A DNA stretch of 64,000 nucleotides from Dictyostelium discoideum. Its lineage: Eukaryota. The stretch's first letter is position 1, and each line of letters opens with the position of its first letter. The stretch spans positions 8,032,001-8,096,000 of the forward strand of contig CM000151.3 of the NCBI GenBank assembly GCA_000004695.1, given 5' to 3'. Made by a program: the position numbers and the translations under genes. A model generated the notes under the pieces. The model ran no database searches and was not told the DNA's origin. It was given only the letters and a program-made list of their open reading frames with translations. This document shows, one piece after another, positions 4,179 through 61,666 of the stretch.

Positions 4179-5106
4179 TTATAATAATTTAATGAAATCA
4201 AATGTTTGAACATCGTTAGTATTGGTTACAGATTTGAAAGTGATAACGATATTACCAGATTCAAATGACCATGACCAATGAGCATTCAAGTTAGCATCAT
4301 GTTTAATTACGATTGTATGATTTGTAGTTGCTTCTTGAACTGCTTCTAAGATCATTTCATCAGCACAACGTTTGGCGAGATTTGCAGCGACCTTTTCGAC
4401 GATACCAGCAAAGATATGACCAAAACTATTCTTTAAGTCGTCAGCAACTTTTGGATAAACAGTTTCTAATGATGATTCATCAATTGACCAATCTGATGAT
4501 GATTTTAATGCTTTTTTAACTGCTGATAAATTATCTTTCATTTTTTGTTCATTTGTTTTAATATTTAAACGAGTCATTAAAGTATAAACACCTTGAGATG
4601 GAATGATTGTTTCTAATTTGAATGTGTTAACATCATTTGTGTTACAAATCTTTGGACGGAATAAAATTCTACAATCACCATTCTCAAATTGATATTTCCA
4701 ATAGGATTCCAACTTTTCATCAGCACAAACAAAAACGAATTTCTTATTTGGAACAGCTGCTAAAAATGCTTCTTTAACTAATGAATCTGCACCGACTTTT
4801 ACCATATTCTTTGCAAGATTACCAACTACATCTTTATAAAAGATACTTCCACAACTATTAGTAACCCATGAATCGTTACATTTAGTAATAATATCTTCAA
4901 AATCAAATTCAATTGAAAATGGTTCACCCAATGATTTTTCGATTGATGCTAAATTAGTTTTTAAAGATTCTTCATTATCTTTTAATGATTTTCTAAAAAT
5001 AAAATAAAATAAATTATTAATTAAAATTTATATTAATTATTAAATGAAGCATTATTATTATTATTTTTATTATTTATATTTACCTTGAGGTTAAGGCGAG
5101 AGGCAT
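4179..5106 (-). CDS. 278-aa two-domain paralog, copy 2. Structure is complement(join(4179..4992,5084..5106)).
   Basis: Same two-exon structure as copy 1: MPLALTSR, intron, KSLKDNEESLK..., with the track ORF 4179..4931. It carries the inner-copy variants SLVKEAF and IIPSQGVY. Confidence 0.8.
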
Positions 5107-5398
5107 TTTAAAAGTTTTTTTTTTATTAATATTAAAATATTATTTATTAGTTTAAGGTTTTTGTTTTGAATTATTTGATAATAAAAAAAAAAAAAAAAAA
5201 ATTTACATTTTTATACTTATGAAATTAGAAAAAAAATAGATTAAAATCCAGAAATATTTAAAAATATCAAAAAAAACAAATAAAATTATTAATTTTAAGA
5301 ATGTAATTGGAATGGTTTTATTTTTTTTTTACACTTATAAATTAGAAAAAAAATAGATTTGAAAATATCTAGATTTTTTTTTTTTTTTTTTTTTTTGG

Positions 5399-5429
<31 letters not shown>

Positions 5430-5542
5430 AATATCTTAATTTGTTTTATTTTTTTTTTTTTTTTTTTTTTTTTTGGGTTGGTGTGCTTTAAAAAAAACAA
5501 AAAATAACAATGAAAAAAATAAACTCTTTTTGGGTTGAGGTG

Positions 5543-11058: not shown

Positions 11059-11661
11059 TAATTTTTCAAAAATTGAGATATTTATTTCGCATATGTTTTA
11101 GTAAAAATAAGCCAAAATTAGTTTTTGGGTTTTGTTGGCATTTGTTTGTTTTTTGAGTATTAATTACATTTTTTAGTTTGAATATTTTTTTATTATTATT
11201 ATTATTTTTATTTGTTATTTATTATTATTGTTATTATTATTATTTTTTTTTTTTTTTGAGTTTTTCATTTTTGTGTTGCAAAACACAAATAAAAAAACAT
11301 GTCACACACCCATTCAGTTTATAATAAAAAAAAAAAAAAAAAAAAAGAAAAAAAAAGAAAATAAAAAAAAGTGGGATTTTCATTTTTTTTTTTTTTTTTT
11401 TTTCAATCATTTATTTTTATTTTTGTCATCAACATATTAATATATAATTATTTTTAAATCTCGTTTTAATAATTCCCCACTTTTTTTGTTTTTTTTTTTT
11501 TTTGCATAATTAATTTTAATTTTTATTTTTTTTTTCTGTACATATAATTTATTAAAAAAAATAAAAATAAAAAATAAAAAATAAAAATATAAAATAAAAA
11601 AAAAAAAAAAAAAAAAAATAAAATAATATAAAATAAAAAAAAAAAAAAAAAAAAAAAAAAA

Positions 11662-13683
11662 ATGAAAGATATTTGGAAATCAGCAAGAAAAGGTGATTTA
11701 GCAAAGATTAAAAAGTATATACCAGGCACAAAATTTAAAGTTGATGAATTAGATAAAGAGAATAGATCAATTCTTCATCATGCGATTGATGGTGACCAAT
11801 TACAAATGGTAAATTATTTATTAGAACAAGGTGCAAATATAAATTTAAAAGATCCTAAATCTGGTGATACTGTATGTATTTAATAATTATAAATAAATAA
11901 AATATATTATTATTATTTTTTTTTTTTTCTAATAGAAAAACATATGTTAATTATTAATTATTATTTTTTATTTATAATTTAGCCAATTTTAATGTCATTA
12001 AAAAAAATTAATGCAATTGATAAACAAGAAGATATTGCAATTTTATTAGTTAATAAAGGTGCAGATTTAGATGTTGAATCAAGAGAGAGAAAGAATGTTG
12101 AAAGATATGTTGATGCATGTCCAAAACGTTTTCAAATAAAGTATAAAGATGCAATTACACAAAAGTTTAAAAATAAATATCCACCAAAGGCAATTGCACC
12201 AGCAAGTCCAGCTACTCAAGTTCTTTTAGCGCAAACTGCAGGTTTACCACCACCTTCACCAAAACCAAATCCACCACCACCACAACAGCAAGAAAACACT
12301 GCTACATCATCAATTATATCAACTGTCGAACCAAGACCATATGTAAATTCAAATGGTGAAACAGTTGTAAGATCAACTAATGAAATGGATTTAATTTTAC
12401 AAGAATCATTGTTAGGTGATGATTTTGATAAAGAACAAGATTTGAATATAATTTGGATGGAAGTTGCATTTAGAGCATCAATCGTTTCCATTAGGTCTGA
12501 GAAAGTTAGATATGACGATATCACCAAAGCCACCGATCAATGTGGTAATATTTTAATACATTTGCTATCAATCATTGGTAATTCAGAGACAACATCGTTC
12601 ATGGAGACTGTAAAGAATCAAGAAGCTGTAAACTCAATTCAAGAACGTGTTAAAAACGTTAAGGAGGGTATCAAACTCCGACTGTTCTCTAGAATTGATC
12701 ATTCTGAATTAATTAGATTAGTTGCAGCTTTAATTGGTTCATTACATTGGATTTACAATTGCTGGTCAGAGGTCCCACAAGACGATATCAATAGATCAAT
12801 TGCCGAATGTGCCTTGTCATGTCGTGTTGCAATGAATTCAGTTACAACTCATACACCATTCCAGTTGGGTGTTTTAACAAATATTGCAAAACTTTTAAAA
12901 AATATTTCAACTAAAGTTTTCATTACTCGTACTCCAGAGGATGCAAAGAAGTTATCAGATTCTTGTTTTGTTATCTCTTCAACTTTTAAATCATTAATGG
13001 TTCTATCGGTAGTGAATGATGTCAAACAAAAATCAGCTGAAAATATCATCTCATTAGGTCGTTCAATCGCCGAACAATTATCAATATTAAAATTACAATC
13101 AACTTCAATCTTACCTTCAAGAGTTGGTCAAAATTTATCATCAAAAGAAGAACGTGAGTTAAATGAATCTGCTTCAAATCAATTACGTTCATCAATTGAT
13201 TATTATATTTCAAATAATAAATCTGATACAACTACTACTACTACAACTACAACTACAACTACAAATAGTGAGAATAATAATATTACAGATTTAATTTCAT
13301 CACCAAAAAGATTACCAAAAGAAGATAAAACATTACCATTATTAGCAAATATTGAAAAATCAATTTCAATGTTAATGGGATTTACAACTGAAGATAGAAA
13401 TATTCAAATGGCAATTCCAGTTCATATGATTGCAAAGGATATTCATGAACTTAGAACTATATTATTAGAATACATTAAAGAACAATCTGATAGTTTATCT
13501 GAAGAATTTAAAGATCAAATTACAAATGCTATCAATTGTTCTGCTCATTTTTCAACTCAACAATTATTCTCTGTATCTGCTTTAATTTGTCATAATAGAA
13601 TTACTGATATCTCACAATTAGGTTATTCTTCTCGTAATATTGCTGCTTGTTGTTGTATTTTAATTGATTCATTCTGTTTTTAA
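11662..13683 (+). CDS. Ankyrin-repeat protein with Pro-rich and poly-Thr segments. Structure is join(11662..11871,11983..13683), 636 aa.
   Basis: ANK motifs: SILHHAIDGDQLQMVNYLLEQGANIN and TPILMSLKKINAIDKQEDIAILLVNKGADLD. Exon 1 ends in phase 0 before GTATGT. The 111-nt intron ends at ag (11981-82). Exon 2 is in frame with the 11992 ORF. Confidence 0.7.
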
Positions 13684-47827: not shown

Positions 47828-50800
47828 TTAATTTGCGCTTGAAGAAAATCTTTGAAGTTTTCTTTTTAATGGGGCTTCAACAAATCTTTTTTTGTAAATT
47901 ATGAAAACAATAGCAATAATTGCAGCTAGACCTCCAACTGGAACAGCGATCACAACTGGTAAAAACCATGACTCACGATTATTATCATCACATTCATCAA
48001 TGAATTCAGGACTAATCAATACAGAGAAGTCAGGATCTAATAAACATTTCTTTGTACAATGAGGTAAATTCATACCAACTGTAATTGAATCATTTGATTT
48101 TGATACTAACACAGTTTGCATAAATGTTGATATACCATCACTTTCGATTCTGTCTATAAATCTACCATTTAAAACTTTTGCATCTTTTTTAATAGCTATA
48201 TAATTTAATGAATTATCTTGATTTGGTGTACTATTAATTTCAATTTGATCATCATTACAATCATTTTCATTATTTGTTTGAATTTCATTTACACTTGATT
48301 TCATTTGTAATTGTAATGTATTTAAATTACTTGAATATTGATAATTTTCAATTGATACTGTCATTTTAACTGATCCACTTGTTAATTTAAAATTAATGCC
48401 TGCAAATGATACATCTCTATCTTTATTAATTTCTTCAATTGTATATGTGATATTACATTTATCATTTTGAATTGATTGAATGAATGTGTAAACTGTTTTA
48501 CTAATATTTGAAATTATTGACCATTTATTTAATAATAGATACTCATTGATTTGATTACCATTGAAATCTATCTCTATTAATTTTGTAATTAAAATTTGAT
48601 AATTTGTTTGTTGATTTGTAATATTTGTATTACCAGTATTACCATCTATTGTTGTATTAGATCCTGGTAATCCACCACTATTATCGCCACCACCACTTGG
48701 ATTTGAATATAAACTACAATCATAACCGCTCCATCTTCCAATACAATTACAATATCCAGTTGTTGTATTACAAATACCATTTGATGTCGATGTACAATGA
48801 TTTGGACATTGTTTATCATTTGAATAATATTGATAAATATCTTTTGATGTTACGTTGATTGAATTTTGAATTACACTTACTGATTTTAAACCTGTACCTG
48901 GTGGTGCTTTACAAATAATTTCACTTTCAGATATATTATAAATTGGTATACATTGTTTATTACCAATGAAAACTTGTGGATCAGTATGATTATTACCAAA
49001 CCAACCATAAATTGAAGCGCTACCACCATTGGTATCACTTGGTGAAACTGCTGATATTGTATGTAATGGAATTGAACAATCAATACCAATCCATTCGTAA
49101 GGAGTGATTGGGCATGAACAAATACCAGTCTGATTATTACATTGACCAATATTATTACAATTATTTAAACATTGTTTAAATGGGATTGAGCAATCATCAC
49201 CTTGATGGTTTGAATCACATTTACATTGACCAATATCAGATAAACAGTAACCATTACCATTACAATCATTATAATTTTCAGAACAATTTAAAATTACATT
49301 TATTCCACTTGGATTTAAAGTGAATTGCGTCGTTAAACCTCCAATTGTAATATATGATAAAATATCCTCCAAAGATGGGTCTACCACACTAGAAATTGTA
49401 CAGTATATTTGATAAAATGATGTACTTGAAACTATACAATTATAATTACCAATAGTAATGTTTACAATTGATTGATTAAAAGTAAAGAATGAACCATCGA
49501 AAATTAAACTACTTGAACCCAATACCCAATCTACCATTTCTAATCTTGGTGGTATATCTTGAGTTGACAATGGGAATATATAATTTGGATTGTTACTATA
49601 TATCAAGTAAACAATTGGTGGTGGTTTTATGGTTGTGATTGCACTTATTATTTTATTTGGTTTTATTACTTTGATATCAAATCTGTCTCCATTTTCAGTA
49701 ACTAGAAAGTTTGAGTTAACCCATGAACCACCTATATTTTCACCAAAAATATAATATTCATATTCGACATAATACATTGAATAATTATATATATTTACGA
49801 GTCTAAGATTTGGAATAATAATACCTTTTAAAAAATTTGTTATTATTTTTTGATAATTTATTGTTAAAAATTGTATTTTTAATTATGAAAAAAAAAAAAA
49901 AAAAAAAAAAAAAAGAATTTTTAAACTTACTTGGTGAAGATGGTTGATTCAAATTTGAAAAAGAATTACCAATGAATCTAGATTCTAAATCTATATTAAC
50001 TAATCCAAAGAAACATGTAAAACATGATGGAATTAATCCAGTCATTGAGTTATTACTTACAATTAAATCTAATTCACAATATGAATCATCAATTGTTCCA
50101 GTTATTTGATTAAAACTAATATCGATGCTTGTTAATTTATTATTAATTGTTCTATTGAAAATTGGTAAAGAACCTGACATTACATTATCGACTAAATTTA
50201 ATTTTTTAACATTTGTAAATAATGAAAAATCAAATGTTTCAATATATGCATTTTTGAGGGTGAACTCTTCAAATTTTTCATTTGTTGGTAAAATAAAAGG
50301 AAGTGAACCACCAAATGTAAAACCTCTACCAGTATCTTTAAAAATTAATTCTTTCATTGATTTACCAACTAATGATAAATCAATTAAAGATGGTGGGCTT
50401 AAAAGTAGTGTTCTTTCAAATTCACTTTTTTTTTTTTTTTAGTGTTAGCTATTTTCAATTATCCAATTAATAAATCAATATAAACACAAATAAAACTTAC
50501 ATTCTTGTTAAATTTTCAGCTCTAATTTGTGAAAATTCAATTGATGGGAAATTTATCTCATCATATACCTGAATTGATAAAGTATTTAAACTTTCACACT
50601 GAGTAATATTAATCCATGAAGATTGGTCAAAACCTGGAAGAAGAACAAGTTGGAAATATGCATTTATATATTTAAATGAAGGTACATTTAAGGATACAAC
50701 TTTAATATAAGATGGATTCCATATGAAGGTTCCATCTAGATCATTTTCAAAATAAATTAAATGAGATCCTATTCCAATAATACTTGAAGTTTGTATTGAT

Positions 50801-50838
<38 letters not shown>

Positions 50839-51392
50839 AGGAATTAGTTAAAAATTATAAATAATATTAAATTTTTAAAATATACATACACTTGATCTGC
50901 TTTAGAAAATATTGAAAATTTAATTTGAGTAGGAAAGGTTTGAGTTTTCATTGTTACTGAAAAATATAAAACAGTAGGTGGAAGTGGTAAAAACTGTATA
51001 TTCTCTTGAATAAGATCAAATCTTGTGGTTTTTTGAGGAAGTGAAGAATATAAAATATCACTATCTAAAACAACTGTACTTAGTGAAAGAGATGTCATGT
51101 TTTCATAACATAAAAAATCATCACCCAAAACATATGACATATTTGATTGTCCAAGGTTTAAAGTGGAAATGTAATTTTTATCACAACCAATATATAACAT
51201 TGGTTGAAAAAAAAAATCAGCTTTACAAAAATCATATTTTGATGTTGTGACATTTGGTGTGAGTTTTGAAATTGTACCCAAATTGGTTAATAAAGTTTTT
51301 ATACAATCATATTCTTTTTGGCTTAACTGTTGTTGTGAATTTACACAAATTATTAAAAAAAAAAACAACAATAGTGAATTTAAAGAAAACAT
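47828..51392 (-). CDS. Type I membrane protein with signal peptide, plant-type LRRs, EGF-like Cys-rich repeats and a C-terminal TM segment. Paralog A. Structure is complement(join(47828..49824,49931..50412,50501..50800,50890..51392)), about 1093 aa.
   Basis: Exon 1 encodes the signal peptide MFSLNSLLLFFFLIICVNSQQQ and ends in phase 2 at GTATGT. Exon 2 ends AGAAT then GTAAGT. Exon 3 encodes LRRs (LNLVDNVMSGSLP...ISFNQITGTIDDS) and ends in phase 1 at GTAAGT. Exon 4 encodes CNGNGYCLSDIGQCKCDSNHQGDDCS EGF-like modules and the TM segment VIAVPVGGLAAIIAIVFIIYKKRF. The exon 3 acceptor is ambiguous: 50412 or 50397. Confidence 0.55.
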
Positions 51393-52190: not shown

Positions 52191-52385
52191 TAATCACCAA
52201 TAATATTATTATAAAACTTAAAAAAATAAAGTTGGTTTTAATTCATAATATTCGTTGTTTTTTTTTTTTTTTTTTTTTTTTTACATTAATGAGTAGATCT
52301 ACGAATATTTTGTTTTGCGCTTGGGATGCAGTAATGAATCTTAGCTATTTGAATTTTAATTTCTTTTTTTTTAAAGTTATTACAT

Positions 52386-52398
52386 TTCTAAATGGGAT
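52386..52398 (-). promoter_or_regulatory. External B-box (GGGATCGAATCCC) about 38 nt downstream of tRNA-His. This is a Dictyostelium pol III element.
   Basis: A second B-box-like sequence lies at the spacing typical for Dictyostelium tRNA genes. A second GGGGGATCGAATCCC copy lies at 53347-53361. Confidence 0.5.
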
Positions 52399-52435
52399 TC
52401 GATCCCTTGACCCAAAGTTTTATTTTTAAAAAAAG

Positions 52436-52506
52436 TGCCGCGACCTGGAATCGAACCAGGGTCAACAGAGCCACAATCTGATGTACTACCACTATACTAT
52501 CACGGC
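52436..52506 (-). tRNA. tRNA-His (GTG)
   Basis: The minus-strand sequence is GCCGTGATAGTATAGTGGTAGTACATCAGATTGTGGCTCTGTTGACCCTGGTTCGATTCCAGGTCGCGGCA. Acceptor stem GCCGTGA/TCGCGGC. D-loop AGTGGTAG. Anticodon loop TTGTGGC with CAGA/TCTG stem. B-box GGTTCGATTCC. Confidence 0.85.
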
Positions 52507-52509
52507 GAA

Positions 52510-52555
52510 TTTTGATATTTTTTCAAAAAACTGCTCACACCGATTTTATATTTTT

Positions 52556-52617
<62 letters not shown>

Positions 52618-53250
52618 CCGAAAACATTCTTTCAGGGAATTTCCAGAATTTTAAATTTTTAAAGTCGAATAAAGATTTTAAAGAAAAAAAAAGAAATGAA
52701 TAAATTGGCAAATACAATAATGACAGAATCAACAGAAACATTGGCAGATAAAATCAAGAAATCAAATGAACTCAGAACAAAGTTCAAATATTTAAAAAAT
52801 ACGTACAGAACACTTGATAAAATAAGCGAAGCAATATACCACACTCAAATTGAACTAAAACAATCACAGCAAAGAAAAATGCACCTTTAAAGCAAATTTA
52901 AAGAAAAGTTGATTTAAATTGGATTTAAATTGAATTTAAAGCCGCGTTTAAAAAATTCATTTTTAAGGTAATTTTTAAGGTAATTTTTAAGATATTTAAA
53001 AATGCCTTTAAAATTTGCTTTAAAATAAATTTTTAAGCAATTTTAAAGGTGATTTTAAAGGTGATTTTAAAGGTGATTTTTAAGGTAATTTTTAAGATAA
53101 TTTTTAAGATATTTAAAAATACCTTTAAAATTTATTTTAAATTAATTTTAAATAGGATTTAAAGTAGATTTAAAGTATATTTAAAGTGAATTTAAATTTC
53201 CTTTAAACATAAATTTAAGGTTTTTAATAAAAAAGATCTAATTTTAGAAC
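52510..53250 (+). mobile_element. Retroelement-derived segment upstream of tRNA-His. It consists of a short stub ending in about 50 A (52560-52612), then TRE-like module sequence with a 64-aa ORF and TTTAAAGG/TTTTAAGGTAAT-type degenerate tandem repeats.
   Basis: The poly(A) begins about 48-55 nt upstream of the tRNA 5' end, which is the TRE5-type integration distance. The 52900-53240 repeat words recur in 53440-53600, directly upstream of ORF1. Confidence 0.4.
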
Positions 53251-53296
53251 AAAAAAATGGGGATAAAATATTCTATCATTTTTAAATTTTTCATCA

Positions 53297-53368
53297 AAGC
53301 AATCAAATGGTTTAATGGTTGATGAGACTACCCTTTGATAGAGGGTCGGGGGATCGAATCCCTTTTGG
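53297..53368 (+). other. tRNA-like remnant. It has a canonical anticodon arm (ACCCT-TTGATAG-AGGGT, anticodon GAT) and a T-loop-like GGGGGATCGAATCCC, but the acceptor and T stems do not fold. A second B-box-like GAGTTCGAAGCC lies on the minus strand at 53406-53418.
   Basis: Manual folding only. Not a convincing functional tRNA. Confidence 0.3.
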
Positions 53369-53621
53369 TAATTTTTGAAAAATTAAAAAAAAAATTTTTA
53401 AAAAATTTATCCGTTAAATAACGGCTTCGAACTCAGGACCTCGCTTTTAAAGCCATTAAAAAGGTAATTTTAAAGGTAATTTTAACGGCGTTCTAAAGAC
53501 CCCCTAAAAATTACCTTTAAAATTACCTTTAAAATTTTTTTAATTCAGGACTTTAAAGCAAATTTAAATTTAATTTAAAGCGAATTTAAAGGTGGTTTTT
53601 TCTTCGCTGTGATATAAATTC

Positions 53622-54803
53622 ATGATCAATATCCCAGATGAGATATCCAACAACTTGAAAGCAGAATTGGAAATCCATTTACAAGGAGATGATAAGATAA
53701 TAACAAGTAAGAATAAATTCAAAATCCTCACGGACTGCAGAACTCAAGTAATCAAGTACTCTAACGTTTTCAACGGAGTACTAAAAGGAGTTCACAGAGC
53801 AATAATAAAACCAAAAAAGATCTTCAAAACATTCAACTGGGAAAAATCAATGGACATAGTAGAAAAAACATTGCATGAAGAAGGACTGGAAATAATCAAA
53901 TTAGATAATTTAGGTGAAAACCTGATAATACACTCATTCAACTCAATTATCAGTCCAGAGCACAAAGACCAGCTAATACATTGTAAACACATAACAATAC
54001 TATTCCTCACTACAACAGAAGAAACAAAAAATCAAAGAAAAACAAATAGGGAAATCGAAGACGAAATCTCAGAAAACTCAAAAATCACGGAACTACCAAA
54101 TTCCGAGACAAAGGAAAACACAAGAATAAACATAAAATCAAAAGAAGAATTCAATCATAAAAACACTAGCGAATCAAAAAATAACAACAAAAACAAAATA
54201 GAAAACAAAAAAGAAAATAATAAAGAAATCAATAATGAAAACATCAAAGACAAGAGCAAAAACGAAAAAGTAAAGGAAAAAGAAATTGAAAATAAAAAAC
54301 CCACAACAATTAGAGCAACAACAACAACCACAACGACAGAAACGACAAATACAATAAACAATATTGAAAAGAGAAAAGTACTTCGTATCCCACCAATAAC
54401 AGTAACATATAGTGTTGACAGCAAAGAGAAAAGGAGAATGGAGTTAACTGAAGATGAAGAAGCATTAGAAGTGGTAAGAAAGATGTTCGAAAATGAAGAA
54501 GAGAACAGAATTTTTGAAGAAAAAATAAATAACCAAAAAAAGAAGGAAACCCCAAGGTTAGCCTCAATCAAAAAAAGACAAACAATGTCACCTATCCAAA
54601 ATTCAGAATCTCCAGCAACGCCAGAGATAGTAAAAAGAAAAAGATTCAACTCATCTCCAAACCCAACAACTAATCACCAAGAAATTTTAACACCTTACAA
54701 AACTCCAATTAAAATAACAAAGGAAGAATCAGATTTAATGGAAGCAGCACTAAGAGACAAATTGCCCAAAGTACTCCAAGACGTACTTCCATCTGTCTCA
54801 TTT

Positions 54804-54809
<6 letters not shown>
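53622..54809 (+). CDS. Retrotransposon ORF1 protein, 395 aa, basic and Lys/Asn-rich
   Basis: Continuous ORF directly upstream of the ORF2 endonuclease. Ends 44 nt before the ORF2 ATG. Confidence 0.6.
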
Positions 54810-54853
<44 letters not shown>

Positions 54854-54856
<3 letters not shown>

Positions 54857-57802
54857 ATAAAAATAATGACCTGGAATTGCCAAGGTTGCTCAACAATCAA
54901 AAGCATGAATCAGACAAAAAATACAATTAACCTAATAAAACCTGATATATCAATACTAACAGAAACAAATCTAAAAAAGGATCAAAATCTAGCGCAAATC
55001 AAAAACCATTACTCAACAGGAGGAAAAGGAAAAGAAGCAAGAGGAAAAGGAGTAATGGCAATAAATCACCTAGAACAAATAGAAATTAAAAACTTGGAAG
55101 AAAAAGAAGGCAGAATCTTAAAATTTACTGCAATTCTAAACAATACGGAAATCAACATAATTGGCATCTATGCACCAGCCTCATATGACAGAAGAAAAGG
55201 ATGGTTTTCAAACAATATTTCCCTTGGAGATCTAGAACAGGCAGACATAGTTACTGGTGACTTTAACATCAACAAATATGCAAAAATCAAGTTCAAAGAT
55301 GGATCATCCGATAAGAGAAAATTCACAGAAAATGAAACAATAGAATTCCTAATGATGGAAGTAGGACTCACCGAAATACTACCAAATTCAACAACTAAAA
55401 CAACCTTCAAAGATAAACTAATCGATAGAACATTCTTATCAACAAAGATGCACCAACTCAATCACTCGTACAAGATAATAGATAAAATAAACAAATCAGA
55501 CCATAACATAGTAGTGATGGATTTCAAAATACCAAATTTCACAAAAATATACAAATCACCCCTATGGAAAATGAACTCAATAATAATTAAAGAAGATAAA
55601 ACAATAAAAAAGATAGAAAAAATAATCGACCACTACCAGGAAACCAAAAGAAAAAACCTTAACATAACGGAATACTGGATTAAGTTCAAAAAAAAAATAA
55701 AAAAACAATGCATTACAACAGAAAAGAAAAGAATACTAGAGAGAAAAAAAACGCTATCAAATCTAGCAAATGAACACACAAAAACAAAAAACAAATATGA
55801 AAAAGAAACAATATCGAACGAAATAACAATACTTCAAGAAGAAGAAAGAATAGACAGAATGATCAAAAGCTCAATCAACTACATCAACAATAAAGAAATA
55901 GCATCAAATCTCCTTACATCTATTCTTAAAAAAAGAGACTCGAGCTCCCAGATTCACAGAATAAAGAACCCATCCAATGGAGAAATCGAAACAGAACAAA
56001 AAGAAATAACAGATTGCTTCAGAAAATATTACGAGACACTCTTCAAAGAGAAAGAATGCGACCAAGAAACACATACAGAACTTCTAAGCACCTGGAACCC
56101 ACCAATAGATAAAAAAAAATTAACAGAGATGGAAGACAGAATCGAAGAATATGAGGTTAAGCTAGCAATAGAAAAGATAGCAGAAGGTAAATCACCAGGA
56201 GAAGATGGAATAACATCTTCATTCTATAAAATCCACCAACACAAACTAATTCCAATCCTCACAGAACTATTCAACTTCTTTTTAAACAATGAAATTCCAA
56301 CAGAATTCAAGAACGGTATCCTTACATCAATATACAAAGGTAAAGGGGATGTCTTGGAAATCTCAAACAGAAGACCAATAACGTTACTCAACGTAGACTA
56401 CAAAATCTACTCAAAAATAATCAACAATAGAATACTAAAAATCCTGCCAAACATAATCTCAAAGTACCAGAACGGTTTTATACCAGGAAGGCTACTCCAC
56501 AACAACATTATAGCTTTGGATTTAGCAATGGAAAAGAGTGATAGAAACACGATAATCACCTTTTATGACTTCGAAAAAGCCTTCGATTCAATATCTCATA
56601 AAGCGTTAATAAGGACTCTAAACCATCTAAAGTTCCCTCGGAAAATAACAAACACAATACTAAGCATGTTAACGAACACCAACATAAGGGTCATGGTAAA
56701 TGGACAACTCTCTGAATCCTTCAGAGCAGGAAGAGGTACAAAACAGGGCGACCCAATTTCACCAACTCTCTTCGCTATAGTATGTGAATGCTTATCAACA
56801 TCAATAAGAAAAGACAATACCATAATAGGCATAAAACTCAATCAGAACAATTCGATGAAGATTGGACAATATGCAGACGACACAGTCACACTAGCCAGTA
56901 ACATAGATGACGCAGATAAAATGGATATGAAAGTTATAAAATTTTGCCAAGCCACAGCAGCAAAAATAAACGATAATAAATGTGTGTGCATCACTAAAAA
57001 CCCAAAGATAAAGACCAAATATAAGACAATTGGGGCGAAAGAAGAAGAAAGATATCTTGGCTTTTTCTTCAACCGCAAAGGTGTAATAAGCAAAGTAGAT
57101 GATACGGTGAACAAACTGGAAAACCTCACAAAATGCTATTCGAGCGTGTCATCAACGCTAAAAGGTAGAATCACAATCCTCAAATCATACCTGCTGTCCC
57201 AACTAACATTCCAACTATACATCAACGAAATAAATGACATAAAGAAACTGGAGAACGTTAATGCCAACATGTTATTCAAAGGGGACAGGTGGGCTATCTC
57301 AAAAGAAAGGAGCAGAAGAGACTATGAAATTGGAGGCCTGGAACTCTGGAATATGGCAACCAGATCCAATGCCCAGAAAGCATGGATATACGAACAATAC
57401 CTCAGAGAAAAAGACGACCAGAACTGCCCTCCACATATGGAAGTCTGGAAGTCGGAAAAAGAAAACTCACTATCAAGGATTCACATCAAATGCTGGAAAG
57501 CCTGGAAGTTGTTGCACCACCCAAGAGAGCGAATAACTCTCAAACTAAACCAAGTCAAACCCAAATATGAAAACAAACAAAAATTAAAAGTAATCTATAG
57601 AAACATGATGGATATCAAATACAAGGGATGGAACAAACACCAGCCAACAACAGGTCAAAAACTGATTCAAAAGAACATTAATCACCCAATTCTACCATTT
57701 AGAGAAGCCAGATCAATCACAACTATCAAAGGAAGAGACTTAGCATGGAGGTATCTACTCAAGGCACTTCCAAAACACCATGGGGAGAATTGCCACTTGT
57801 AA
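54854..57802 (+). CDS. Retrotransposon ORF2: apurinic-endonuclease-like domain plus reverse transcriptase
   Basis: MIKIMTWNCQGC...ILTETNL is EEP-nuclease-like. RT motifs KGKGDV..RPITLLN, FYDFEKAFDSISH and QYADD are present. Confidence 0.8.
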
Positions 57803-58281
57803 AGAAGAAGAGTCGTCTATGCACATCTTCTTCGAATGCAAATCAATAAAACAGGATATCGACTCAATCTATCAAAAGGTCTGTAAAGACTCTAACAACA
57901 CTTACCACGGTCCATGGAGCGAAAAAGTTCTCGGAAAACTACTCACACCATTCTCATCAAATCTGATAGGAGCCATTATGGAATCGATATGGTACAGAAG
58001 AAATCAAATAAAATTCAACGATAACACTACAATAATAACAGAGAACCAAATAATTCATAAAATCAAAAAAGCGAGAGATGCCGAATGGGATAGAACAAGA
58101 AAGATAGTAGAAAAGCAACTACGTCAAGAACTAAAATGCACTGATAACCGAGAGTCAATCAATCGGACCGCATCAATAAAAAGAAGACTCGAAAAATTCA
58201 GCCACAACTGGAACTCGAAACTCATGACCATAAACATCCCGGAACACTTCATACCATACTGCTCATATAACACCAACTACT

Positions 58282-58286
<5 letters not shown>
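57780..58286 (+). CDS. ORF2 C-terminal Cys/His (zinc-knuckle-like) domain in a shifted frame relative to the RT. This is either a frameshifted or a programmed-shift tail.
   Basis: C-x8-H-x4-C...C spacing (CKEEESSMHIFFECKSIKQDIDSIYQKVC). It overlaps the ORF2 stop by 23 nt in a different frame. Confidence 0.5.
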
Positions 58287-58318
<32 letters not shown>

Positions 58319-58382
58319 ATAACAATAATAATAATAACAATAATATAATAATAATATAATAATAATAAAAAAAAAAATAAGA

Positions 58383-58416
<34 letters not shown>

Positions 58417-58497
58417 ACAAATAAACTCTCCTAGAACACACTCAAATTGAGTGATGTTATTAAAAAAAAAAAAAAAATTTTATATTTTACCTTTATG

Positions 58498-58676
58498 GAT
58501 AGTAGAAAAGCAACTACGACAAGAACTAAAATGCACTGATAACCGAGAGTCAATCAATCGGACCGCATCAATAAAAAGAAGACTCGAAAAATTCAGTCAC
58601 AACTGGAACTAGAAACTCATGACCATAAACATCCCGGAACACTTCAGACCATACTGCTCATATAACACCAACTACT

Positions 58677-58717
<41 letters not shown>

Positions 58718-58900
58718 ATAACAATAATAATAATAATAATATAATAATAATAATAATATAATAATAATAATAATAAAAAAATAAGAATAAAATAAAAAAA
58801 AAAAAATATATAAAAAAAAAAAAAACTACAAATAAACTCTCCTAGAACACACTCAAATTGAGTGATGTTATTAAAAAAAACAATGACAGCAAAAAAAAAA
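58498..58900 (+). mobile_element. Severely 5'-truncated second TRE copy (last 190 nt of ORF2, A-rich 3'UTR, terminal block ACTACAAATAAACTCTCCTAGAACACACTCAAATTGAGTGATGTTATT, then A-run), inserted in tandem
   Basis: About 97 percent identical to 58095-58475. Point differences include gtcaag/gacaag, cagcca/cagtca and cttcat/cttcag. Confidence 0.65.
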
Positions 58901-58924: not shown

Positions 58925-61032
58925 TTATTTTCTGTTTAATAATTTAATCTGTCTTTTGAAACGGGCCTCAACAAATCTTTTTTTATAAATTACGTATAAT
59001 AGTGCTATAATCAAAGCACATGCAACCACTGGTACGGTAATGGCAACTGGTAAAACCCAAAATTTTTGATCATTTCCACGGCACCCGTCAACGAATTCAG
59101 GACTAACCAATACAGAGAAGTCAGGATCTAATAAACATTTCTTTGTACAATGAGGTAAATTCATACCAACTGTAATTGAATCATTTGATTTTGATATTAA
59201 TACAGTTTTCATAAATGTTGATATTCCATCACTTTCGATTCTGTCTATAAATCTACCATTTAAAACTTTTGCATCTTTTTTAATTGTTATATAATTTAAT
59301 GAATTATCTTGATTTGGTGTATTATTGATTTCAATTTGATCATCGTTACAATCATTTTCATTATTTGTTTGAATTTCATTTACACTTGATTTCATTTGTA
59401 ATTGTAAAGTATTTAAATTACTTGAATATTGATAGTTTTCAATTGATACTGTCATTTTAACTGATCCACTTGTTAATTTAAAATTAATACCTGCAAATGA
59501 TACATCTCTATCTTTATTAACTTCTTCAATTGTATATGTGATATTACATTTATCATTTTGAATTGATTGAATGAATGTGTAAACTGTTTTACTAATATTT
59601 GAAATTATTGACCATTTATTTAATAATAGATACTCATTGATTTGATTACCATTGAAATCTATCTCTATTAATTTTGTAATTAAAATTTGATAATTTGTTT
59701 GTTGATTTGTAATATTTGTATTACCAGTATTACCATCTATTGTTGTATTAGATCCTGGTAATCCACCATTATTACCACCACTACTGCCACCACCACTTGG
59801 ATTTGAATATAAACTACAATCATAACCGCTCCATCTTCCAATACAATTACAATATCCAGTTGTTGTATTACAAATACCATTTGATGCCGATGTACAATGA
59901 TTTGGACATTGTTTATCATTTGAATAATATTGATAAATATCTTTTGATGTTACATTGATTGAATTTTGAATTACGCTAACTGATTTTAAACCTGTACCTG
60001 GTGGTGCTTTACAATTAATTTCACTTTCAGATATATTATAAATTGGTATACATTGTATATTACCAATGAAAACTTGTGGATTAGTATGATTATTACCAAA
60101 CCAACCATAAATTGAAGCATTACCACCATTGATGTCACTTGGTGAAACTGCTGATATTGTATGTAATGGAATTGAGCAATCATTACCAGTCCATCCAAAA
60201 GGAGTGATTTGACATGAGCAAATACCAGTTTGATTATTACATTGACCAACACTATTACAATCATTTAAACATTCTTTTAATGGTAATCCACATGCATCAC
60301 CTTGATGATTTGAATCACATTGACATTTACCAGTTAGAGTTGTACAAATACCATTACCATTACAGTCAAGTGGATTACAATCGATATATGGCAAAGAACA
60401 ATCATCACCTTGATGTGTTGAATCACATTGACATTTACCAATATCAGATAAACAATAACCATTACCATTACAATCATTATAAGCAGAACAGTTTAAAATT
60501 TTATTTATTAAACCTGGATTTAAAGTGAATTGAGTTGTTAAATTACCAATTGTAATATATGATAAAATGTTTTTAAAGGAATCTATACTATTGAAGACTG
60601 TACATGATATTTGATTAAATGATGTACTTGTTACAAAGCAATTATCGCTACCAATTGTAATATTTACAATTGATTTATTATATGTAAAGAATGAACCATC
60701 GAAAACCAAATTCAAAGCACTTGATTGCCAATCAACCTTTTCTAAAAGAGGATTAATATTTCTGGTTGATAATTTAAAAAAATAGTTTGGATCCACTGGG
60801 CTATATTTCATGGAAATAACATCTGGAAGTTTTGAATAAGACACAACCCTTATTAATTTATTAACAATTAAAAATTGACTAGCATAATAACTACCAAAAT
60901 CATCAACAACCAAGTTTGTTGGAATCCAAATACCACCTAAATTTTCACCAAATATAAAGAATTCATACTCTAAATAAGTTGTAAAATTCTTTACATTACC
61001 TGGCATAAAGTTTGGAATAATTATTGCTAAAA

Positions 61033-61086
<54 letters not shown>

Positions 61087-61666
61087 TTGTTAAAATTTAT
61101 GCACAAACTATTATTAATAATATTAAAAAACAAATACTTACATGTAGATGATGGATAGTTATTTGTAAAATTGTTACCAGAGAATTTATAACTAAAACTT
61201 GGTAATCCTAAGAAACATGTAAAACATGATGGTATAGTACCATTCATTAAATTATTTCTTACATATAAATCAACAGAACAGAATGAATCATCAATGGTAC
61301 CTGTTATTTTATTATCCATAATATTAATATATTTCAATTTTCCAAATAATGTTATATTGAAAACTAATGGAAATGAACCAGAGATAACATTATTTTCTAA
61401 TGTTAAAATTTCAACATTATTAAATAATGAGAAATCAAGTGTTTCAATATATCCACCTGAAAATGAAAATGATTTGAAATTCTTGTTTTTTGGTAAAATA
61501 AATGGGAATAAACCGCCGCCATATTGAAAATTTCTACCACATTTTGTAAAACTCATTGATTCAATTGAATTACCAATTGATGAAAAATCAATTATACTTG
61601 GCACACTAGAAATATAAGAATCAATCCAACTATTTCATAAATATATATTTTTAAAATGTTAGACTT

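Follow-up and report, generated by a model that had tools for sequence, protein, structure and literature searches.

A probable tandem of two TRE5-type retrotransposon insertions upstream of a tRNA-His gene of Dictyostelium discoideum

Background

On chromosome 2 of Dictyostelium discoideum AX4, the region upstream of a tRNA-His(GUG) gene is crowded with long runs of A, short repeats, a sequence resembling a second tRNA, and the reading frames of a retrotransposon without long terminal repeats (non-LTR), one of which changes frame near its end. How many insertions produced this arrangement, and are the A-run between the two open reading frames (ORFs) and the frame change of ORF2 properties of the element or signs of its decay? 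The locus is part of a 64,000-nt stretch (NCBI GenBank assembly GCA_000004695.1, contig CM000151.3, positions 8,032,001 to 8,096,000 of the forward strand) that is called the window below and in which positions are numbered unless another sequence is named. A reading made from these letters without database searches (the sequence-only reading) had proposed several stacked pieces of TREs, the tRNA-targeted non-LTR elements, and had offered translational coupling or frameshifting on the one hand and decay on the other for the A-run and the frame change.

The locus is best explained, with a probability of roughly 0.85, as a tandem of two insertions of one TRE5-type family, most likely TRE5-B, upstream of the tRNA gene. 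In the proposed order of events, a heavily 5'-truncated copy (now 58498-58880) would have inserted about 58 nt upstream of the tRNA gene; a second copy, whose 5' end stopped at an A-run internal to the 5' untranslated region (UTR) and which hence brought no ~199-bp monomers, would have followed at 48-50 nt upstream, between the tRNA gene and the first copy, duplicating 11 bp of target; a 747-bp element with terminal inverted repeats (TIRs) and a 2-bp target-site duplication (TSD) would then have entered codon 57 of ORF1 and created the 64-amino-acid ORF, the module repeats and the tRNA-like remnant of the sequence-only reading; and the reference sequence would have come to carry a 2-nt deletion in the CCHC motif of ORF2. 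Truncation, insertion and deletion together make this copy dead three times over. By analogy with the TRE5-A literature, integration may have proceeded by target-primed reverse transcription via TFIIIB/TFIIIC bound to the tRNA gene, and repeated hits on the same gene would generate TRE-TRE tandems, which are typical of TRE loci that gather multiple insertions (PMC5391098).

Evidence for two insertions upstream of one tRNA gene

Searching proteins with the repaired ORF2 as query brought up paralogues in D. discoideum and homologues in D. cf. discoideum and D. citrinum. At the DNA level nine family copies were compared, the window copy included (L001, L003 and L006-L009 from GCA_054883475.1; L002 and L005 from GCA_054859355.1), together with two more distant relatives, L004 and L010 (D. 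citrinum). The orthologous locus was rebuilt from L011 and L013, also from GCA_054883475.1, an independent assembly of the same lineage. L002 differs from the family by about 20% at the nucleotide level, and L004 has 56% protein identity (about 44% protein difference). Since ORF2 up to its premature stop matches DDB_G0277521 (P0043) of D. discoideum AX4 at 982 of 982 residues, and the host gene on the left side of the locus is DDB_G0277431, the window represents the AX4 chromosome 2 reference.

The target is a genuine tRNA gene, the sole tRNA called by ARAGORN in the 64 kb, and its external B box, which comes after the T7 terminator, 24 nt beyond the 3' end of the tRNA, is equally genuine when set against the published consensus (PMC3159450); both had been named in the sequence-only reading (Table 1). 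The younger copy is bracketed by an 11-bp TSD, ttttatatttt, the left repeat of which (52544-52554) closes the native spacer upstream of the tRNA gene, while the right repeat stands directly after an A16 tail. Comparable TSDs of 10-11 bp flank L001 (caatattaat), L002 (gcaatttttta) and L003 (ttttaataaaa), and poly(A) tails range from A8 to A16 across the copies. The supposed 50-nt element stub ending in A50 is thus no piece of an element, being the native spacer of the tRNA gene; a pure A-run does start 51 nt upstream of the tRNA 5' end, but it is 58 nt long (52557-52614) rather than 50.

This A-run is the internal 5'-UTR A-run of the element, which is seen in all eight copies that retain a 5' UTR. 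Full-length copies start with GAGTAAGAG and continue with ~199-bp monomers (1.4 in L001, L003 and L009; 5.4 in L008), A33-47 and the leader cctccgaaaac, so that what lies upstream of the run in them is element monomers and not target DNA; in every copy with a 5' UTR the run precedes this leader or, in L002, L005 and L010, its diverged counterpart. The window copy opens with tc followed by the A-run, and is therefore 5'-truncated at the internal run and lacks the promoter-type monomers. Tandem monomers were located at L008 2092-2988 and L001 5174-5443, and the monomer is common to the L010 family (4900-5470); these arrays recall the promoter monomers of mouse L1 and the ~200-bp A-module of TRE5-A.

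Between the younger copy and other full-length genomic copies identity is 98-99%. BLAST aligned it with L001 in the same orientation in two blocks, 52550-52864 with L001 5420-5737 and 53612-58308 with L001 5736-10457, each at 98%, and matched the segment between them (52864-53611) at 96%, reversed, to L001 11225-10467, inside the L001 3' UTR. The older copy lies outside the 11-bp TSD after 10 nt of further target DNA and has an in-frame stop of its own. From this position, and from its lower identity to the younger copy (Table 1), the older copy is an earlier, independent insertion, and the arrangement is tandem rather than nested: the 5'-truncated 3' copy of the sequence-only reading exists, as a separate insertion. 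That reading was correct in seeing here a tRNA-targeted non-LTR locus that had been hit more than once. The tRNA-His gene and the TSD are present in the orthologous locus as well, as are the older 3' copy and the element nested in ORF1.

Table 1. Features of the tRNA-His locus (window coordinates) and inter-ORF spacers of other family copies and a relative
Feature	Position	Strand	Basis or remark
External B box GTCaaggGATCGAaTCC	52395..52411	-	one mismatch to GTCnnnnGTTCRAnYC
tRNA-His(GTG), integration target	52435..52506	-	ARAGORN; Rfam tRNA 65 bits
Native spacer upstream of tRNA-His (the earlier "stub")	52507..52554	.	last 11 nt are the left TSD
Younger TRE5 copy, 5' end: 2 extra nt (tc) and 58-A run	52555..52614	+	comparison with full-length copies
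Leader, A-run to ORF1 start, 81 nt	52615..52695	+	98% identical to L001 5488-5568
ORF1 codons 1-56	52696..52864	+	collinear with intact ORF1 of L001, L003, L008, L009
Non-autonomous TIR element, MITE-like (miniature inverted-repeat transposable element), 747 bp, in ORF1 codon 57	52865..53611	+	CACAGC...GCTGTG termini
tRNA-like core of TIR element (degenerate cloverleaf, anticodon-loop GAU), then T4	53301..53371	+	Rfam tRNA 20.2 bits
B-box-like motif GTCggggGATCGAaTCC in TIR element	53345..53361	+	one mismatch to published consensus
Second B-box-like motif GTCctgaGTTCGAaGC, convergent with the first	53423..53439	-	one mismatch to consensus
ORF1 remainder	53612..54809	+	stop TAA 54807-54809
Inter-ORF spacer, 44 pure A, ORF2 AUG immediately after	54810..54853	+	compared across copies
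ORF2 to premature stop, AP-endonuclease-like N-terminus and reverse transcriptase, 982 aa	54854..57802	+	identical to DDB_G0277521
2-nt deletion site, tgccact/tgt against tgccactCAtgt in other copies	57797..57798	+	copy comparison
ORF2 C-terminal Cys/His region, +1 frame	57798..58286	+	intact homologues read through
3' UTR: A30, (AAT)n-like tract, second A-run, 47-nt terminal module	58287..58461	+	conserved in all copies
Poly(A) tail (16 A) and right TSD ttttatatttt (58478-58488)	58462..58488	+	junction identical in ortholog
Older 5'-truncated copy of same family, 383 bp: last ~190 nt of ORF2, 3' UTR, A8 tail	58498..58880	+	91-93% identity to younger copy
Inter-ORF spacer, L001			76 nt, 3 non-A
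Inter-ORF spacer, L003			71 nt, 1 non-A
Inter-ORF spacer, L008			76 nt, 1 non-A
Inter-ORF spacer, L009			75 nt, pure A
Inter-ORF spacer, L006			57 nt, pure A
Inter-ORF spacer, L005			40 nt, pure A
Inter-ORF spacer, L002			43 nt, 88% A
Inter-ORF spacer, L004			about A22

Family assignment

Eight of the nine copies have a tRNA gene at a distance of 32-50 nt from the element's 5' end and head to head with it (48-50 nt in the window, 32-46 nt elsewhere); the ninth, L006, has no tRNA gene nearby. The other copies adjoin genes for tRNA-Ala, Asp, Thr, Ser, Cys, Phe and Arg, and the eight tRNA-associated copies all have the element on the plus strand and, at its 5' side, a minus-strand tRNA. This is the position and fixed orientation of TRE5 elements upstream of tRNA genes (PMC3159450, PMC5391098), which insert about 50 bp upstream with the element 5' end facing the tRNA 5' end (PMC3159450). 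The copies also have the TRE5 architecture of two ORFs, an ORF2 with endonuclease, reverse transcriptase and zinc finger in that order, and a poly(A) tail.

Three TRE5 families are known, among which TRE5-B is the only one without a C-module (PMC3159450). TRE5-A ends in a second B-module and a 134-bp C-module, positions T15, C26, A35 and C38 of which, counted from the 3' end, have been mutated (PMC3159450), and its ORF1 and ORF2 overlap in TRE5-A.1 (PMC5633606). The 3' module of the window copy fails a test for these four C-module positions at every offset, whereas all four are found in an older element next to L001 and in L010. L010, which has overlapping ORFs as well as the C-module, served as a proxy for TRE5-A: ORF1 of the family is 36% identical to that of L010 over 179 aa, with nothing alignable beyond, and ORF1 of TRE5-B is about 25% identical to that of TRE5-A in the literature. 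The TRE5-A primers Rep-190 and Rep-109Q have no match in the window or in L001-L009 with up to 4 mismatches, and ORF1 residue 10, Ile in TRE5-A, is Thr here. TRE5-A was accordingly rejected for its non-overlapping ORFs (40-76 A between them in these copies), absent primer sites, failed C-module test and residue 10. TRE5-C had come into consideration because the folding energy of the last 54 nt, -12.8 kcal/mol at 22 C, is near the -12.5 published for TRE5-C. It was also rejected: these nucleotides fail the four-position test, show no resemblance to a C-module in a comparison by eye (no computed alignment), and form one hairpin rather than three stems. The supplementary alignments of Spaller 2016 contain no TRE5-B or TRE5-C sequences. 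As the family is not TRE5-A and has neither a C-module nor a 3' B-module, TRE5-B is the best assignment, and a probable one.

The element resembles TRE5-B in its insertion site, some 50 bp upstream of a tRNA gene towards which the element's 5' end points, in having two ORFs, in the AP endonuclease (APE)-reverse transcriptase-zinc finger order of ORF2, and in the missing C-module; the window copy differs in being 5'-truncated, interrupted and frame-shifted. With TRE5-A (formerly DRE) it shares targeting position, orientation and ORF2 domain order, and in L010, which carries a TRE5-A-type C-module, a related 5' monomer of ~200 bp stands before an A-run, but the ORFs are split by A44-76 in this family and the 3' end is a 47-nt module (58415-58461) with one hairpin, CACTCAaatTGAGTG (58439-58453). 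In two diverged subfamilies, L002 (about 9600) and L005 (about 10140), this hairpin reads CACCCAaatTGGGTG, a double change from T:A to C:G. Compensation of this kind suggests that the 3' stem-loop is conserved, like the one reported in the C-module of TRE5-A. At L010 6890-6960 the endonuclease of ORF2 starts (IKIGIWNVQG) without an AUG, and the +1 frame opens a few codons before the ORF1 stop; this contrasts with the AUG directly after the A-run in the present family and points to a different strategy of ORF2 translation.

Mammalian LINE-1 offers a wider comparison: it has two non-overlapping ORFs, of which ORF2 is thought to be made by unconventional termination and re-initiation, and in the mouse it has promoter monomers. 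The present family is like LINE-1 in its short inter-ORF spacer, 5' truncation, poly(A) tail and variable TSDs, and unlike it in that the LINE-1 spacer is not a homopolymer, LINE-1 is not targeted to tRNA genes, and the ORF1 products are unrelated.

A-runs of the element

The run of exactly 44 A between ORF1 and ORF2, which the sequence-only reading had picked out, has counterparts in the other copies. The spacer is 40-76 nt long and at least 96% A in L001, L003, L005, L006, L008 and L009 (Table 1), and the AUG of ORF2 stands directly after it in every copy. Further A-runs are found in all copies after the ORF2 stop (9-58 nt) and before the 47-nt 3' module, and the 5'-UTR run is retained even in L010. 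Because the A-rich spacer is kept across copies and in two diverged lineages, L002 and L004, the inter-ORF run is a feature of the element and not decay, as one of the two earlier options had it. The family's A-runs, whether in the 5' UTR, in the inter-ORF spacer or downstream of ORF2, are part of its conserved architecture.

Since ORF2 has its own AUG right after the run, termination at the UAA of ORF1 followed by re-initiation or internal entry is the likeliest route to its product. ORF2 would then be translated by re-initiation after ORF1 or by entry on an unstructured A leader, rather than by frameshifting or as an ORF fusion.

Slightly short of even odds are given to the runs having no function at all, that is, to their being unconstrained spacers of an A-rich element in a very AT-rich genome, resized by replication slippage. 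Their lengths differ widely among near-identical copies (44, 57, 71, 75, 76 and 76 between the ORFs) with occasional interruptions, the sense strand of the element is already 49% A, and the related C-module family represented by L010 has no inter-ORF run. The persistence of an A-rich spacer with an immediate ORF2 AUG at 20% nucleotide difference (L002) and at about 44% protein difference (L004), and of the 5'-UTR run even in the L010 family, argues the other way, although persistence of this kind is only suggestive.

Frame change in ORF2 and reliability of the reference

ORF2 of the window has a reverse transcriptase domain (Pfam RVT_1, 3.8e-37) and a weak match to Exo_endo_phos, and intact ORF2 homologues carry a CX2C-X8-H-X4-C motif near the C-terminus. 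In the window the Cys/His region is in the +1 frame (57780-58286), as had been noticed; the ATG at 57780 that opens the 168-aa ORF there is fortuitous. The cause is a 2-nt deletion between the first two Cys of the motif: the window reads gagaattgccact-tgtaaa, where L001, L003, L006, L007, L008 and L009 read gagaattgccactCAtgtaaa, encoding C-H-S-C. All seven other copies lack the deletion, including the ortholog in the independent assembly, which has the two bases and a 562-aa ORF that continues unbroken across the CCHC motif. ORF2 is also in a single frame in P0045 (intact, 1144 aa) and in the homologues P0001-P0006, which include three further lineages. A programmed ribosomal frameshift before the Cys/His domain was therefore rejected, the frame change being found in none of the seven other copies and the three further lineages being in frame; of the two explanations once proposed for the frame change, translational frameshifting falls and decay holds. 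The deletion, being unique to the reference sequence, reflects either an error there or a mutation of very recent date.

That it is a real, recent mutation of the sequenced AX4 clone is the less probable of these, at something like one chance in three or a little under. The deletion is 18 nt from a locus-specific G (gaagaagaG) common to the window and the ortholog only, by which this stretch of the reference comes from this locus; yet the independent assembly has both bases while showing no substitution in about 9.8 kb of flanking host DNA, and a private 13-nt deletion with clustered changes in the palindrome of the nested element (described below) speaks for local errors of the reference.

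Inside the element, 36 substituted sites set the two assemblies apart. At 30 of these (55292-57445) it is the ortholog that has a private base, the window agreeing with the family consensus; at four (54646-54735) the ortholog has the consensus and the window the private base; and at the remaining two (55943 and 57193) neither base is private, L001 sharing that of the ortholog and L003, L008 and L009 that of the window. The ortholog moreover carries a 9,849-bp Tdd-like DNA transposon in ORF2 at window 56608-56613, with a 6-bp TSD (aataag), TGTCCC...GGGACA termini, rve-integrase ORFs and four nested copies of the 747-bp element. The comparison spanned window 55292-57445 and 56608-56613 against L011 15311 through L013 4790. 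The Sanger-era reference is probably collapsed in part, chimeric or consensus-filled inside this repeat.

The nested 747-bp TIR element

ORF1 is a single uninterrupted frame of 451-454 aa in L001, L003, L008 and L009. In the window it is split by the 747-bp element, so that the 64-aa ORF (52696-52890) is ORF1 codons 1-56 read on into the insertion, and the 395-aa ORF (53622-54809) starts at the internal Met60 (ATG 53622). Pfam gave no meaningful domains in ORF1, the 64-aa ORF or the 168-aa ORF2 tail. The inserted element has inverted termini CACAGCAAAGAAAAA and TTTTTTCTTCGCTGTG, its terminal 51 nt being 75% complementary, arms with subterminal arrays of 11-12-nt TTTAAAGGTRAT-type repeats in both orientations, and a 2-bp TSD, AT, at 52863-64 and 53612-13.

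The ORF1 site is empty in L001, L003, L008 and L009, and the same element stands elsewhere: inverted in the 3' UTR of L001 (10467-11224, TSD AA), inside ORF2 of L003 (10156-10915, TSD AA), at a different ORF1 position in L002 (4626-5378, TSD GA), and four times inside the Tdd-like DNA transposon of L011 (16456-17215, 18647-19404, 20456-21215 and 22326-end). Every copy is flanked by a 2-bp TSD the sequence of which is not fixed (AT, AA, TA, GA). All eight independent insertions of this ~750-bp element are inside other transposons, and none was found in host DNA among the ~295 kb sampled. The idea that the element targets this TRE family specifically is weakened by the four copies inside the Tdd-like transposon.

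Its tRNA-like core scores below the Rfam gathering score of 29 and was not called by ARAGORN. The two B-box-like motifs are present in the 80%-diverged L002 copy, with changes confined to the "n" positions of the consensus. Since module repeats and tRNA-like core move as one TIR-bounded unit, they are parts of one nested element and represent neither TRE modules nor a second tRNA gene. Non-autonomous DNA transposons of the CACTA/Mirage/Chapaev (CMC) type are the natural comparison class for 5'-CAC...GTG-3' termini, a 2-bp TSD and subterminal arrays, and the present element has TIRs beginning with 5'-CAC, a 2-bp TSD and arrays of ~12-nt motifs in both orientations; it differs from that type in its unfixed TSD, its tRNA-like core and its two B-box-like motifs. 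The D. discoideum repeat catalogue (Glockner and colleagues, 2001) reportedly includes the small putative DNA transposons thug and DDT-S, which are said to be associated with other transposons. A literature search gave no description of the structure of thug-T or thug, and a search for MITEs gave nothing on Dictyostelium.

At 53486-53504, in the centre of a ~70-nt palindrome of the TIR element, the window has a 13-nt deletion with clustered substitutions, where the ortholog and all other copies of the element are complete; the difference appears to be an artefact of sequencing through a hairpin.

Other explanations of the locus

The view that independent TRE pieces are stacked here (an A50 stub, modules with a 64-aa ORF, and the remnant of a second tRNA gene), with the A-run and the frame change serving frameshifting or coupling, is very improbable. 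The A-run beside the 50-nt segment does resemble a poly(A) tail, the tRNA-like stretch does reach 20 bits against the Rfam tRNA model, and TRE loci do accumulate insertions. The A-run, however, precedes the same leader in every copy with a 5' UTR and follows the monomers in full-length ones; intact ORF1 and the 64-aa ORF are collinear; the tRNA-like core travels together with the repeats, flanked by a 2-bp TSD of their own; and ORF2 is in a single frame in all other copies. What the sequence-only reading saw as a 64-aa ORF, module repeats and a tRNA-like remnant is thus present in the sequence, but none of it is a separate TRE piece.

Equally slim is the chance that the 3' copy is an internal tandem duplication within a single element, an alternative suggested by Tandem Repeats Finder, which reports a 395-bp period over 58103-58880 with 1.9 copies and 93% matches. 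It was rejected on the poly(A) tail, the TSD and the pattern of identity: the two units are parted by a complete tail and a 21-nt linker of non-element DNA that opens with 11 nt repeating the target sequence at the 5' junction of the element, the distal unit diverges from the proximal one by far more than the proximal one does from other genomic copies (91-93% against 98-99% identity), and at the L001 locus the distal partner belongs to a different family. At that locus the target 10-mer caatattaat occurs three times (5164-5173, 11421-11430 and, as caatatta, 11773-11780), bracketing two successive insertions of different TRE5 families, a pattern of repeated hits upstream of tRNA-Ala.

That the long element is a TRE3 inserted some 100 bp or more downstream of a degenerate tRNA gene at 53301-53371, with 52557-53300 unrelated to it, is hardly credible, for although the 395-aa ORF has the tRNA-like stretch some 250 nt upstream on its own strand and the literature places TRE3 about 100 bp downstream of tRNA genes, that stretch is inside a TIR element interrupting a continuous ORF1, is missing at the corresponding place in L008, L009 and L005, which have no insertion there, and eight of the nine copies stand head to head with a real tRNA gene, on its upstream side.

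Several points weigh against the explanation by two TRE5-B insertions in the form given here. The name TRE5-B was reached by elimination and from statements in papers rather than by alignment to a consensus, and the C-module test considers four positions. The variable length of the inter-ORF spacer and the A content of the sense strand fit a neutral, slippage-prone spacer equally well. A TSD of the older truncated copy was looked for by eye and not found. Finally, the disagreement inside the element between two assemblies of the same lineage makes the exact sequence of this copy, and its interruption by the 9.85-kb transposon, uncertain.

Flanking genes

The tRNA gene and its TREs are flanked by two paralogous genes for ComC/EGF-like membrane proteins, at 47828-51392 (DDB_G0277431) and 58925-61604 (P0051-like), both members of a large Dictyostelium family.

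Conclusions

The locus is an already known kind of element in the form of a dead copy, and a textbook TRE-TRE tandem at a tRNA gene; a catalogue of D. discoideum repeats is reported to have been published in 2001. The practical gain lies in annotation: DDB_G0277521 and the small ORFs next to it are not genes but pieces of a single dead retrotransposon, and the "64-aa ORF" and "tRNA-like remnant" stem from the DNA transposon nested in it. Within this repeat the AX4 reference seems unreliable, with its 2-nt indel, its consensus-like stretch and its lack of the 9.85-kb nested transposon.

Two bolder readings, to which jointly a small probability is given, concern the biology of the elements. In the first, the A spacers would be functional cis-elements of the TRE5-B lineage, the inter-ORF run acting as an unstructured re-initiation or cap-independent landing pad directly before the ORF2 AUG, a strategy that would differ from the overlapping-ORF arrangement of the TRE5-A/C lineage. 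In the second, the TIR element would be a portable TFIIIC site, which, if its two B boxes are selectively maintained, could seed or mark clusters of transposons. Should the A-run spacers prove functional, this family would provide a simple system for studying how ORF2 is translated in bicistronic non-LTR elements.

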